Positions 42,990 to 53,829 of a stretch of DNA of 64,000 nucleotides are shown here, in pieces. Source of the stretch: Glaucostegus cemiculus (taxonomy: Eukaryota). The stretch covers positions 5,704,001 through 5,768,000 of the forward strand of contig CDPCPM010000344.1 of the NCBI GenBank assembly GCA_976551045.1. The letters are read 5' to 3'. Positions within the stretch are counted from its first letter, which is position 1; the number at the start of each line of letters is the position of its first letter. The notes under the pieces were generated by a model that did no database searches, had not been told where the DNA came from, and saw nothing but the letters and a program-made list of their open reading frames with translations. A program made the position numbers and the translations under genes.

Positions 42990-43360
42990 GTTGAGGGGGA
43001 ATCTCTTTGAAATCTACTGAATATTGAAAGGCCTGGATAGAGTGGATGTGGAAAGGATGTTTCCAGTAGTGGGAGACTCTGGGACCAGAGGGCACAGCCT
43101 CAGAATAGAAGGATGTCTCTTTGGAACAGAGATAAGGAGGAATTTCTTCAGCCAGTGGGTGGTGAATCTGTGGAATTCATTGCCACAGACGGCTTTGGAG
43201 GCCAAGTCATTGGGAATATTTAAAGCGGAGGTTGATAGGTTCTTGATTAGAAAGGATGTGGGGTTGAGAGGAAAAAATTAATCAGCCACGATCCAGTGTC
43301 AGAGTGGACTCGATGGGCCAAATGGCCTCATTCTGTTCCTATGTCTTATGGTCTTATGGT
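42990..43360 (+). mobile_element. CR1 LINE 3' end
   Basis: KGLDRVDVERMFP...RRNFFSQWVVNLWNSLP peptide; (TCTTATGG)n tail. Confidence 0.85.
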
Positions 43361-46500: not shown

Positions 46501-46784
46501 CACCATTGATTAGCTGTCCAATGCATGCCAGCTTCAGGTGCTATACTGGATATATCAGCAAAAGACTGGACAGCTTCTCTTGACATAAGCCATGGAGTTC
46601 ATTAAGTGTAATGTACAGGTTTGATATCGGAATAGCAGTCATGTGAAATTGAAGAATCTGTTTAGATGACAGATGGCCTTTATCACTGTCTCTCAGCAAC
46701 CAGAGAGACAGTCACAGAGACTTTTACAGAAGAGGATTTTCAAGGTACAGTCTTTGTTACCTCTGACTTTCTGATTTTAGTTCA

Positions 46785-47316
46785 TGGAAGTCCCTCCAGA
46801 GGATAGTTAGGGCTGCGGAGCGGATCATAGGTGTCTCTCTTCCATCCATCGCAGACATATACAAGGACCGTTGTTTTAGGAAGACCAAAAATATAATGGC
46901 GGATCCTTCTCACCCCTCCCATCATCTCTTTACAATTTTGCCATCTGGAAGGAGGCTCAAATGTATCAGGGCGAGAACGACCAGGCTGAGCAATAGCTTC
47001 TTTCCGCAAGCCATCAGAACTGTGAACTCTCTCATTCCTCCAGCTACTTCATTAACACTAAGGGATGCTAGGCGCACAGAAATGCACCAGCACTTTAAAT
47101 GCCCGCCACCAGCTCGTTCACTTTAAAACTATTTATTTAACCTGCCGTACTTAATTTAAACTTCCGTAGTTTTAATTTTTTTGTTGTTCAATGTGTCTGT
47201 GTGTCTCTTCTGTTTGTTATTTAAATGGGACGAGCACCTGAGGAGGACGGTATCTCGCTCCTATGCATACTATGTCTGTATATGGTTGTGACAATAAAAT
47301 TGATTCTGATTCTGAT
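46785..47316 (+). mobile_element. Rex1/Babar LINE 3' fragment
   Basis: MADPSHPSHHLFTILPSGRRLKCIRARTTRL peptide; (ATTCTG)n tail. Confidence 0.9.
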
Positions 47317-47961: not shown

Positions 47962-48334
47962 TGTCGTGGAAACTGTTCTATCGCTCAGAATTAACACAGG
48001 CAGAGACATTCAGGGTTCAGCTTCGAGAGATTTATTCATGATATATCACGGAGAGCCTGCTTGGTCCGCACCAAGGCAGAACTCTGCCCTTACAGTGATT
48101 TCGGAGTCAACTTTATACAGAGTAGTAAACAAGTCTCAGATGATTAGTTTAAACCTTGAGACATATAGATTAGATTTTTAGTATATGTGATTAACAAGCT
48201 GCCAGGATGTGTCTGGTTATACTCATGGGATTAATCATTCAGGTCCTTGGTAGCCTCCCAATTCCTGCAGGAGACATAGAACTTCTGCCCTTAGTTTTGA
48301 GAAATAGAAAGAAAGTTAAGAATTTTCCTCCACA
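47962..48334 (-). mobile_element. 3' LTR of the ERV (373 bp)
   Basis: TG...CA ends with imperfect inverted termini (TGTGGAGGAAA / TGTCGTGGAAA); TATAAA at 48112-48117 and AATAAA at 48031-48036 on the minus strand, in U3-R-U5 order. Confidence 0.9.
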
Positions 48335-48358: not shown

Positions 48359-50425
48359 TCAACATAAATCTTCAGGGAATGGGGGTTCATACCCCTCTGG
48401 CAGGGGTCTCATCTCTAAACATTCTTCTTCATCATAACTATCGTATCTACTTTTTGCTACCTTTTCCACCCGAGTTTCTACTATCATGGTTCGTCCTTTT
48501 ACTTGAGCAACCAAGCCTAGTACGTTGCCAATCAGTCTCCGTACCTTTATCCACATTACACAGGTTAGTATTAGCAACAACAAGAGTACGAGCCCCATTG
48601 CTACAATAGGGTGTAGAGCCAATTTTAGGACTGCCGAGGCCTTGGGTGACCATCCCGTGAACACATCCCACCAGTGGTGAACAGTAAGGGACGTAACTTG
48701 ATCAGCTATACGTACCAATTGTCCTTCTTTATAACTCATCTCTACCACCAGTTGATTGAGGTTGCGTCCTTGCCTGGCCAAAGCCTCTGATACTTTTTTA
48801 CTGGCTTCAATCAAGGCATGCAGCCTTGTCAAATCCACTACTGGAGGAATGGGATCCATCGCATGTACAGCCAGGTGTTGCTGTACTTGTTTCCAATGCC
48901 CAAATGAGTGGATTTGTTTCGTTTGAGGGTCATATAGAGTGTGTATTCCCTTTACGCATTTATTTATTGGGGGTCTGTATAGAAGGCCATCCAAATATAC
49001 AGGCCAGGTTCCTGAGACGCATACCTCGTTCATCCCTATTTCGGAAATAATTGTGTCATTTGATGGCCGTAATTCCCACAGACATACTCCTACCGAGTGT
49101 TGTATGGAGCAAGGCTCATATACAGCCGTTTGGTATGGGCACACCATCCCAAAAGGCCATCTTACACATCCCTTGGAGGAATGGGTCTGGTTTTCCGTAT
49201 CCACCCACTCTCCTTTAAATACCGGATACCAAAAATTGGAGCCAAACAAATGGGGTAGTACCTGAAACTGACACCAAATCTCTGTTTTTGTATTATTTAT
49301 CATCTCCATAGTTATAATGCATCCTTTCCTATCGCAACTAGTATATTTTTGGCGCGGCCTTATAGTTATATTTGCGGTTTTACCTTTCCGATTAATTCCC
49401 AACATTTGTTCCCATGTTTTCGAGTGGAAGGACAAGACCTTTCTTTCTAGTTCAGCCCTCAGCAGCTGGCGTATTATTTCTTTCATCATGCAATGCATAT
49501 ATTTAGAGTTCAAGGCTGTTTGATTGATCATTTCTTGTTCTATTTCTCTCTCTATGGCCTTATTATGCTGCCACATCATTGTATTGGTAAAATGTCCAGA
49601 TACCTGAGCCTTTTGTAGTCCCTTATTCCATGCATTCCTTACTCTAATGCCTTCTCCTACCAAGCCTCCTACAATTTGTATTTTATTCTGCAGAGTCTCT
49701 ATGTCCATGGAGTTTAAAGCTCCTATCCCTGTCCCTATATCCCCTAACACTGTCCCCAGTGCATCCCTTTTCTTTCTCTCCCTAATTCCGTATTTGTCTA
49801 GCTTTGCCTCTACCTTGGTTACATTACAACTATCCGGTTTTGGGGTGTCGTACTTGATCTGTATTGTCAAATTTAGTATATTAGGGGATCTTACCACCGG
49901 AGTGCAAGTGGAAAACATTCTTCTTAGGTGCCCTAAATTGGTTTCTCCCTTACGTTCACGATTAACTTTTGTCCACTGCCGTTGTGGGCAACTTGTTCCT
50001 TTTCTTCTTTCATTGGTACATTTCATCCAATCACCGTTTTCGCTCTCCAGGGGGAAGGTACACTCTACCTCCCGCTCACACTTGGTTCCATTACTCCCAT
50101 CGCTGTCATTGGTGGGTTTAAAACAGCTCGCATTGGAGATGTTATATATTACAGTGAGATTTACCATATGGGTAGTGTACACAGATACTTCCCTTGACTG
50201 TGGGTGCACCTTAACCCCACATCCTTGAGGGCAAGTCACCACCCAACTTCCTACGTATGTTCTACCGCAGTCAATAAGGCCTGTCCAATTAGTTATCTTC
50301 TCCTGCTTCTGTTCCCAAAACCCTGGCTCTGCTAGGCCCCTTTTTTTTTCCCATTCTGTCTTGCTTTCTATTACTAATCCTAAATTGTCTAAGATCAGAC
50401 AAATTACCCACAGTATCAGTGTCAT
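48359..50425 (-). CDS. env: Intact retroviral envelope glycoprotein, 688 aa, non-gamma-type
   Basis: ATG with A at -3; N-terminal signal peptide; furin site RERKKR (aa 215-220); Gly-rich fusion peptide DALGTVLGDIGTGIGALNS; helical region after it; Cys-rich mid region; membrane-proximal HHWWDVFTGWSP; TM helix ~aa 605-626; ~60-aa tail; 13 N-X-S/T sequons; lies between IN and PPT/LTR. Confidence 0.95.
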   Translation of the reverse strand: MTLILWVICLILDNLGLVIESKTEWEKKRGLAEPGFWEQKQEKITNWTGLIDCGRTYVGSWVVTCPQGCGVKVHPQSREVSVYTTHMVNLTVIYNISNASCFKPTNDSDGSNGTKCEREVECTFPLESENGDWMKCTNERRKGTSCPQRQWTKVNRERKGETNLGHLRRMFSTCTPVVRSPNILNLTIQIKYDTPKPDSCNVTKVEAKLDKYGIRERKKRDALGTVLGDIGTGIGALNSMDIETLQNKIQIVGGLVGEGIRVRNAWNKGLQKAQVSGHFTNTMMWQHNKAIEREIEQEMINQTALNSKYMHCMMKEIIRQLLRAELERKVLSFHSKTWEQMLGINRKGKTANITIRPRQKYTSCDRKGCIITMEMINNTKTEIWCQFQVLPHLFGSNFWYPVFKGEWVDTENQTHSSKGCVRWPFGMVCPYQTAVYEPCSIQHSVGVCLWELRPSNDTIISEIGMNEVCVSGTWPVYLDGLLYRPPINKCVKGIHTLYDPQTKQIHSFGHWKQVQQHLAVHAMDPIPPVVDLTRLHALIEASKKVSEALARQGRNLNQLVVEMSYKEGQLVRIADQVTSLTVHHWWDVFTGWSPKASAVLKLALHPIVAMGLVLLLLLILTCVMWIKVRRLIGNVLGLVAQVKGRTMIVETRVEKVAKSRYDSYDEEECLEMRPLPEGYEPPFPEDLC

Positions 50426-50619: not shown

Positions 50620-51584
50620 TCAGGTGCTATTTGCTTGGGGCCTTTGTTCCTTGTCCGAAAGGTTATCAGGATAAAAGATTTTGCATCTGGTAGCATGCGT
50701 CCAATCCGGGCGTCCGTCTAATTTCAACGCGGTCCTAGTTGTCAGCAGCACTTGATAGGGTCCTTTCCATCTAGGAGAGAAAGATTCCTTAGTTAAAGCT
50801 TTCACTAAAACTTGATCCCCTGGTTTAAAGGGATGCATACTTCCTTCTGTCATTGGAATTTGAGCCTGCCGTACCCTGTCATGCAACTTGGCAGCTACCT
50901 CACTTATGGCCTGTGCAAACTTCAGGGTGATCTCATCATTCCAAATTAAAGCCACTTTTTCCGGCGCCAGGGGAGGTTTTACCCCTGTGGGCATTGGCCT
51001 GCCCATTAAGGCTTCATGCGGTGTTAAACCAGTATTTCGGTTCTTTTGATTTCTCATCATATACATAACAATTGGTAAAGCTTCAGGCCATTTTAATCCA
51101 GTCTCGTGGCATGTTTTATTCAAGGCTGCTTTTATTTCACCATTCACCTGTTTCACCATGCCTGAAGACTGAGGCTGGTAGGGTATATGTAATTTCCACT
51201 GGAATCCCATTGTTTCTATTAATGCACCTACTATCTTCCCTGTAAAATGTGTTCCTCTATCACTATTAATTCCCATAGGTATACCATATCGGGGTATCAA
51301 TTCCTTCAACAATATCTTTACCACTGTTCTAGCATCATCCCTCCTAGTGGAGTATGCTTCCGTCCATCTAATGAACATATCCACAATTACTAACAGGTAC
51401 TTCAACCCGGAGGCCGGAGGCATGTGTACAAAATCAATTTGCAAATTCTCGAAGGGCATACTAGGCTGTGGCAAGTGATCATACTTCGCTGGTGTTTTTC
51501 CTTTATTGTTTTTCTGGCAAATTTGGCATGTTCTAACTACCTTTTCTATTGTGACCGTTATTCCGGGTGCATACCATTGCGTGG
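50620..51584 (-). pseudogene. pol: Retroviral integrase, 5'-truncated, DD(35)E catalytic Glu replaced by Lys
   Basis: CQIC half of the HHCC finger, LQIDF, SDRGTHF, YQPQSSGMVKQ (K exactly 36 residues after the second D), C-terminal PRWKGPYQVLLTT. The first ~20 aa of the listed 343-aa ORF (GTG start) come from host flank beyond the TSD. Confidence 0.92.
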
Positions 51585-53829
51585 TCCACACAAATCCATG
51601 GAGCAGTTCACCAACGCTGAACAATACCAGTGTATATAGACTGTTCCACACACTTCAGCTATTCCTGTGTTGTTGTTCTGTTAGAGTAATAATATAACAC
51701 TTTCCTAAGATGTCAAAACTGTGGAAAATCTTATTCTCTCATTTTCACCATCCCACGGGCCTTTAAACCCAATAGACTGTGATCAGTATTCCTCAACATC
51801 ATCCTGTGGTTTTAAGCAATGATCTGATTATACATCTTCTGAATTAGCCATTTGCTTGGGTTTTACAATTGCAAAGACAGGGGTAATGAAGAAACCTCAT
51901 GTATTGTGACAGTCAGTGGGGATTAAGATCACTCATTTAAATTGGATTGAACTGGGATAATTTTGCCTCAGTGATATAAATGGAGCCAGAGGGCATCTGA
52001 CAATGAGTTCAATCCCTGGCATTGTCTAGCTCTGGGGTATTCGAAGGGGAGACCATTTCCTAACATTCCAGCCTATGGTGTTCGAAGAACTCTGTCCACA
52101 TATTCCATGTCTCATCTGAAACCTCCTTGTCCTTTCTGGGAAGGGAATAAGTTAACAATCCAGGCCAATTAGTCAATCAATTTAGGAAGTCACCTGGGCC
52201 CTGAGTAATGATATGCAGCATCTAACTTGTCTGCAAGATGATGCTTGCTTCCAGCAATAACTTCAGCTCCCATTTGAAAGAGCACATCAAATCAGCATTC
52301 ACTGTGCCTCCTGGTTCGAGTTTAGATAACTTTAGTCCTTTGTCTTCAATAAGCTATTTAATTGACAAAACTATCTACACAAACGTGTCTGGATGTTCAT
52401 CCCCAGATAGCACTAAGCATGTGGTATAATAGAATGAGCATGTTGTACTTGCATTTGAAATTCATTTCAATGACTTCGACTAAATGAACTCCAGAGATTG
52501 AATACAAGGCACTGATGCTCCCATACACCGTGTTTAGCATTACTGACCAAGGATGACTTTGTGCACAACATGGTCTAATACCTTCATTACCTTCAAAAAC
52601 GACCACGGCCACCATTTTATAATTTCACCCTCCTAATTACCCCGTATTTCCATGAAATAAAAAATAAATAGCTAATAAGATTCTAAATAATTGTCTGTAC
52701 AGAATCACAGTACAAAGTGCTGGAGATTAATTATAAAGCTATTTAGATATTAGCTCAATCCTTTTTTTAACTATTATAATTTAGCAAAGTTATTCAGGGA
52801 TTATAAAGTTTGCAACACTCACAGAATAAATTCCATACGTAATGACCCTCTGATGCATATTATCTATATATTCCATCGTTCAATGCCATAATTTAAAATC
52901 AGTCAAATATGTCCCAAAATTATGTGCGTAATTCTCTTTCTATGACAACTGTCTATGCCCCATTTACAGATTATAATATTGCAAAATTACTAAAAGAGAT
53001 GAACTGTCTTCAGTTGCATAATGAATTGGAGCATGAATCTGTCGAGTTGTGGAATTAATGTTATCAAGGGCAGTTTCCTTATGACTGATAGTTGCAGCAG
53101 CTGAACTCAAATTAACATCTTGGATTACAGCTGAGCTTTCTTTACCCTGTATTTCACAGATGACTATATTTGAACAAAATACAAAATGATGCATTGGGAC
53201 GAAACACAGTTTAAGGTTTAACATCCTCTGATTGACTCCTGCTTTGTTACTTTAACAGGAGCGTTAACCCACATAAGGTAATCATGTTGGCACTTCTAAT
53301 CAAGGAGTAGGTGGAAGAAATATCCTGTGATAAACTTGTTCCCTCTGGTGTCATGAACCTTGTTTGACATTATCAGGTCTGATGTTGTGTATAGACCACA
53401 GTAAGCGCAGAGGTTACGACTAGAAATCAGGCACTGCTGAATCCTCCATCAGGGCCATTGGATGGTCAGAGCCTTGAGGCATGGAAGGATGAAATGAGGC
53501 CACAGCATTGTGATGGAGTCCGTCATGGCATCAAAGGGTGAGATTAGGACCTTGAGGGATCATGGCATTAGAGGGCCAGAGTGTAATGTGATTAGGGGAC
53601 AGGGTGGGTGCTCTCTGAGTGCTGTATGATCAGGTGGTCAGAGCCGCAGGTGGTCAGGATATCAGTAAGTTGTAAGGTCAATTACTACGACGGTAGGTGT
53701 TGTAGAGGTTGAGATGGGGGCAGATGTTTCTTTTTGTGCAGTCCCAGTCTGCAATGAAAATACACTTGTCCTGGCAGATTGACTACAGAAAATTGTAATT
53801 AGATTTATGGATGGGCTAAAAAATTATAT

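Follow-up and report, generated by a model that had tools for sequence, protein, structure and literature searches.

A predicted F-type envelope protein encoded by a class I endogenous retrovirus of Glaucostegus cemiculus

The question considered here is what kind of envelope protein (Env) is encoded by an open reading frame (ORF) of 688 amino acids in the genome of Glaucostegus cemiculus, and on what kind of retrovirus it is carried. The ORF, env, lies in a stretch of 64,000 nucleotides (assembly GCA_976551045.1, contig CDPCPM010000344.1, positions 5,704,001 to 5,768,000; hereafter the window) and runs without interruption on the minus strand at 48359..50425, with its ATG at 50425 and its stop at 48359-48361; the proviral features described below are all on the minus strand. 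Our answer, to which we assign a probability of about 85%, is that it is the open env of a provirus that lacks its 5' part and belongs to a young endogenous retrovirus (ERV) family with an MLV-like (class I) pol, and that its product is, as judged from the predicted model, an F-type (class Ib) Env that would likely mediate entry in a way similar to the fusion (F) protein of paramyxoviruses. The Env is not gamma-type and the element is not a lokiretrovirus.

The envelope protein and its predicted fold

The protein begins with a hydrophobic N-terminus that is likely a signal peptide (residues 1-20, 50366..50425) and ends with a membrane anchor (residues ~605-628, 48542..48613), both identified by hydropathy, the anchor being followed by a 60-aa tail. 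It contains 13 N-glycosylation sequons and a single RxK/RR site, RKKR at residues 217-220. Cleavage there would leave a mature surface subunit (SU) of ~200 aa and a transmembrane (TM) subunit of 468 aa with an ectodomain of 384 aa, in agreement with an earlier sequence-only reading of 48548-49783 (env residues 215-626), which had described a short SU and a long TM subunit after cleavage at residue 220. That reading had also reported the lack of the immunosuppressive domain (ISD) and of CX6CC, and indeed none of QNRxxLD, CX6CC and CxxC occurs in the 688 residues. No Pfam family is matched at E<=1, and therefore the protein has no TLV_coat domain. At the sequence level nothing of known structure is recovered either, with no phmmer match in the PDB at E<=10 and a profile search of the PDB returning coiled-coil noise only.

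The predicted model, by contrast with these sequence searches, does find matches. Foldseek gives 53 matches in the PDB at E<=0.001, and all 39 of these that were listed are paramyxo- or pneumovirus F proteins. In a structure search that is independent of Foldseek, covering 48,161 chains, the top 6 are F proteins or foamy virus Env. Among the matches listed, gamma-type Env is found in none of the fold-match lists. The alignments with F run in order from env residue 162 to ~512, through the beta domains as well as the helices. In nearly all rows the F2-like segment (residues 162-220, with RKKR at its end, 49766..49942) is aligned with the start of mature F2 (chain residues ~22-35), and residues 162-191, which are modelled confidently as strands, are aligned to this F2 start, so that the N-terminal subunit is predicted to add strands to the fusion core. 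Downstream of the cleavage site come, in the model, an HRA-like long helix with a central helix (residues 240-331, 49433..49708), Cys-rich beta domains similar to F domains I/II (residues 350-510, 48896..49378, pLDDT mostly >85) and HRB-like helices (residues 533-580, 48686..48829), followed in the sequence by a conserved membrane-proximal motif, HHWWD...GWSP (residues 583-594, 48644..48679). RKKR, the putative cleavage site, is followed directly by a conserved Gly-rich segment with the motif GxGxGxLNxxDxE (residues 221-243, 49697..49765), and from this place and its conservation the segment is taken as a putative fusion peptide. A caveat is that it is weakly hydrophobic, no 19-residue hydropathy window in this segment exceeding 1.2.

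The prediction is thus of a core that resembles F (residues 162-510), preceded at the N-terminal side by an additional beta-domain (residues ~50-146, 49988..50278), a putative receptor-binding module for which no usable Atlas match was found. The F2/F1-like layout that had been noticed from the sequence survives for the core, while the SU is not a plain F2 but the extra beta-domain plus an F2-like piece of ~60 aa. The view that this is not an ordinary gamma-type Env is borne out by the lack of TLV_coat and by the Foldseek comparison with F proteins that had been suggested as a check. Relative to paramyxo- and pneumovirus F, which provide the best matches among solved structures, with an ordered alignment that begins at the F2 start and extends across domains I/II, the protein differs in the additional ~100 aa at the N-terminus, in the shorter F2 part and in having no sequence similarity.

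In BFVD, a side observation concerns a filovirus of fish (Wenling thamnaconus), whose glycoprotein (A0A2P1GML9) ranks 2nd-3rd with both the full and the core env model (E 1e-7 and 2e-6). The retrovirus-like ectodomain is noted to be missing from fish filoviruses (PMC11521997), and so this glycoprotein may be F-type.

The provirus, its sister copies and its pol

The copy in the window retains, besides env, the 3' part of pol at 50620..51585, an integrase (IN) fragment recognized by Pfam (rve, E 1.6e-16; MLVIN_C, E 5e-16), and a 3' long terminal repeat (LTR) of ~373 bp at 47962..48334, which begins and ends with TG...CA and is preceded by a purine-rich tract. At 51585 the provirus breaks off, and the window contains no further part of it. 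By a simple pattern, no splice-acceptor-like tract was found between IN and env. Apart from the provirus, short frames at 46767-47126 and 43021-43281 look by eye like the reverse transcriptase (RT) tails of non-LTR retrotransposons, amid many dispersed SINE-like repeats.

When the TM ectodomain was compared with the 2.85-Gb genome, 68 candidates yielded 51 matches, of which 10 are full-length at 96-100% identity, half of them (5/10) with an internal stop. All 12 loci examined have paired LTR sequence (~96-100% identity). In most of them gag, pol and env are still present, decayed to differing degrees, in the layout LTR-gag-TAG-pol-env-LTR; the single in-frame TAG between gag and pol is present in 6/6 copies checked. 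Of 5 distinct insertion sites, 4 have target-site duplications of 5 bp and the remaining one has a duplication of 4 bp, and the primer-binding site at L011-L014, L021 and L022 matches the host tRNA-Ser(AGA). No separate attachment-protein ORF was seen in the copies examined, a further point of difference from paramyxo- and pneumovirus F. The window env is ~99% identical to sister copies with LTR pairs that are 98.7-99.5% identical. Against 11 of the 12 loci (L022 was omitted as a near-duplicate of L021) its dN/dS is 0.26-0.56, with binomial p of 9e-10 and 0.002 for two pairs. The env is thus under purifying selection, which fits spread by reinfection.

Note also that this Env class is represented in the genome by another, degraded lineage (G000:C363:3635050-3636560; 30-49% identity), around which 10 kb of sequence gave neither a pol nor a gag match. 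A second query, a frog Env, retrieved almost solely the same family; since the first pass was stricter, this is a lower bound.

The backbone is assigned to class I (gamma/epsilon-like) by three features, namely gag and pol sharing a reading frame that one stop interrupts, an RT-RNase H nearest to gammaretroviral enzymes, and an MLV-type C-terminus of IN. A sister copy's RT-RNase H reaches 504-508 bits with p80 RT/RNase H chains, which we take to be gammaretroviral, versus 184 with foamy virus Pol; its isolated RNase H also matches gammaretroviral chains best, and MLVIN_C is scored at 58.6 bits with a cut-off of 29.2. The closest Pol relatives in the databases are from sawshark (77%) and teleost ERVs (~59%), and no RT relatives were found in IMG/VR. 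Two points weigh against a clean class I call: the best PDB match of the whole integrase is foamy virus IN, and the RT tree, built on 33 database homologs, contains neither named viruses nor an outgroup.

Two observations on related Pol proteins are added. A teleost Pol in an adjoining clade (Scomber japonicus, 59% identity, a single predicted protein) ends in an ISD-bearing TLV_coat fragment, which hints that near backbones use gamma-type Env, i.e. that env has been exchanged. Secondly, the Pol of locus L020 (G000:C1; protein P0007) carries between protease and RT an insert of ~200 aa (residues ~125-335) with two HxT motifs, whose His residues are kept in 13/16 and 12/16 aligned fish and amphibian homologs. 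The insert has no Pfam or PDB match and looks, we presume, like a 2H phosphoesterase; a domain of this type occurs in fish retroviruses.

Relatives of the Env and alternative origins

A phmmer search of 1.84 billion representatives gave 103 clusters of env homologs at E<=0.001, of which 39 reach <=1e-10. Those named (20 clusters and four proteins) belong to sharks, bichir, pipefish, frogs, turtles, birds, koala and Bufonid herpesvirus 1, the closest being from sawshark (65% identity) and horn shark (43-47%), which by itself would make a cartilaginous fish the probable host. The koala cluster has five koala predicted proteins, and therefore the family reaches mammals. One homolog bears a fused integrase. 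In an alignment of 59 homologs, with counts referring to the rows aligned at each position, conservation peaks at the cleavage site, in the Gly-rich motif (G231 36/39, N238 37/39, D241 35/40), at near-invariant cysteines within residues 385-490 (C420 47/47, C439 49/49, C448 50/50) and in the Trp motif (W585 41/43, S593 38/40); C174 (36/38), C200 (21/25) and C312 (31/45) are candidates for an inter-subunit disulfide. The ISD is found in 0/103 homologs, and CX6CC in 2/103, neither at the gamma-type position. The distance from cleavage site to WW is 354-385 in 10/12 listed homologs, while in these 12 the cleavage site itself ranges over residues 149-471, so that the short SU, true of the 688-aa protein, does not stand as a trait of the family. 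A search for longer homologs returned 0 of 2877 candidates, all of 1625-4640 aa, which has no bearing on walleye, snakehead or foamy virus Env.

The sequence-only reading had suggested that env-like proteins of birds and reptiles share both motifs. Such proteins exist, and one of them is chicken LOC422926 (873 aa), known as Ovex1 ORF3 (PMC2717909). It matches the window protein by phmmer (E 9e-15) and by BLASTP (22% over 251 aa, E 2e-15), is homologous in the TM subunit, has both motifs and, like the window protein, has neither ISD nor CX6CC. That paper also recorded these two absences and the relation to TERV and GGLTR11, left the envelope identity uncertain and, in its available text, assigned no fold. 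We conclude that the window protein, as judged by sequence, belongs to the Ovex1 ORF3/TERV Env-like family. In a tree of 32 rows it groups with two shark proteins (support 100/100), and Ovex1 with bird and turtle sequences (98/99). Ovex1 ORF3 differs in its longer N-terminal subunit, with cleavage at 430, and Ovex1 differs from the window element in that it has no signal peptide and lacks homologous LTRs, while its Pol is close to those of SnRV and spumaviruses (PMC2717909). As to the herpesvirus, its protein YP_009552989 groups with frog Env homologs (100/99) and is likely an env captured by a herpesvirus; the env models have as their top BFVD match an unnamed entry of 928 aa, which is probably this protein.

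Could the protein instead be a compact member of the Env lineage of the walleye epsilonretroviruses (WDSV, WEHV), i.e. the native envelope of an epsilon-like virus? We consider this possible but doubtful. The backbone is class I, and the Envs of WDSV and WEHV, likewise on a class I Pol, are distinct and without gamma-type hallmarks (PMC9967133). With the full model, the Envs of WEHV1 (E 2.3e-7, rank 3) and WDSV (1.4e-5, rank 15) are matched in BFVD ahead of feline foamy virus Env (3.2e-3). With the core model, however, WEHV1 drops to 2.7e-3 (rank 34), behind foamy virus Env at 1.9e-3, and WDSV is absent among the best 50. Moreover, the entries are about twice as long (1317 aa for WEHV1 and 1159 aa for WDSV versus 688 aa), the comparison being one between predicted models, and no walleye virus is among the 23 named of the 103 homologs. 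The walleye Envs thus look F-like in predicted models, while a special kinship with the window Env is unproven.

The other alternatives are rejected on the evidence available for each. That the element is a lokiretrovirus, or has its Env from that family, is very unlikely: the Env of lokiretroviruses resembles F, is cleaved at RXKR, contains a coiled coil and is also from a vertebrate LTR element (PMC7947760), but the likeness is at the level of the fold only. The lokiretrovirus backbone is sister to all retroviruses, with an RNase H that groups with foamy viruses and an IN that groups with CGIN1 (PMC7947760), whereas here IN has MLVIN_C and, by similarity scores, RT/RNase H is far nearer to gammaretroviral than to foamy or Ty3 enzymes. 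HHWW, WWD and GWSP have 0 occurrences in the part of the lokiretrovirus supplement examined, where four Env proteins have, by eye, an N-terminal subunit of ~120 residues and a hydrophobic fusion peptide. More improbable still is that the window copy is a host-domesticated env with a cellular function. The frame is open although the 5' half of the copy is missing, and Ovex1 ORF3 is conserved across birds (PMC2717909); but with ~99% identity to sister copies whose LTR pairs are nearly identical, the open frame needs no domestication, because the copy is simply young. Least probable of all is a gamma-type (class Ia) Env that has diverged strongly, with loss of ISD and CX6CC and gain of an insertion, and that matches F through coiled coils and generic beta-sheets. 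An alignment that follows F in order across the beta domains, not helices alone, the lack of gamma-type Env among the fold matches listed, the lack of ISD in every homolog and the lack of TLV_coat among the families listed for 60 members all argue against it.

Proposed entry pathway and implications

Based on the reading of the protein as an F-type Env, the following pathway is proposed. By analogy with F and foamy virus Env, Env would trimerise and be cut by furin at RKKR. The F2-like strands would remain interlaced with the TM subunit rather than be released as free SU, and the F2-like piece is probably disulfide-linked to the TM subunit via C174 or C200. In class Ib proteins the N-terminal subunit is part of the refolding machine, with receptor-binding modules added N-terminally or between the subunits (PMC11468914), and in the window protein this role likely falls to the small N-terminal domain. 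Upon triggering, the helix at residues 240-303 would extend and drive the Gly-rich peptide into the target membrane, after which the helices at 533-580 would zip back to give a six-helix bundle, with the Trp-rich HHWW segment acting at the membrane surface. The family likely spread through germ-line reinfection.

The fold type is already known in retroviruses, in foamy viruses (PMC11468914) and lokiretroviruses (PMC7947760), and F-like Env has been published for invertebrate errantiviruses (10.1101/2023.10.26.564294, PMC13524379); the suggestion of a little-studied Env class thus holds in so far as this is a separate family on a class I backbone. In foamy virus Env the leader peptide provides a second membrane anchor, cleavage takes place twice and the receptor-binding domain is inserted between the subunits (PMC11468914). 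The window Env, for its part, would have a simple signal sequence, be cleaved once and carry a small N-terminal domain, and the Pol that accompanies it is of class I. We found no published account of the pairing with a class I backbone, of the spread across vertebrates or of the assignment of Ovex1 ORF3: a literature search, with most subscription papers outside its reach, found no F fold assigned to Ovex1 ORF3, epsilonretrovirus Env or class I ERV Env, and Chary and Hayashi state that their analysis of vertebrate ERVs is to be published separately (PMC13524379). In their available parts, PMC12583693, PMC13709493, PMC12287698, PMC12690878, PMC11521997 and 10.1101/2021.11.23.469661 do not describe the family. 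It would have been missed because a survey of fish and amphibian Env used gamma- and beta-type queries (10.1101/2021.11.23.469661) and another study came to the conclusion that, foamy viruses aside, every amphibian retrovirus found has a gamma-type Env (PMC12690878).

The relatives, from sharks to birds and koala and including Ovex1 ORF3, likely represent a widespread and overlooked envelope class. Going further, we lean slightly towards the view that they form a third, jawed-vertebrate-wide class Ib Env family, distinct from those of foamy viruses and lokiretroviruses and carried on orthoretroviral backbones, recently infectious in cartilaginous fish, domesticated in birds (the ovary gene Ovex1 ORF3) and captured by a frog herpesvirus, with a fold common to walleye epsilonretrovirus Env. 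If this is true, the rule proposed for orthoretroviruses, by which their Env belongs to class Ia, with the F-like fold setting foamy viruses apart (PMC11468914), would be wrong. The long-unexplained Ovex1 ORF3 would gain a testable identity as a co-opted F-type protein, and a fold would be offered for the unclassified epsilonretrovirus Env. In addition, a compact architecture of F plus a small tip would be placed between paramyxovirus F and the coronavirus spike, and the finding would bear on whether the ancestral retroviral envelope was F-type.
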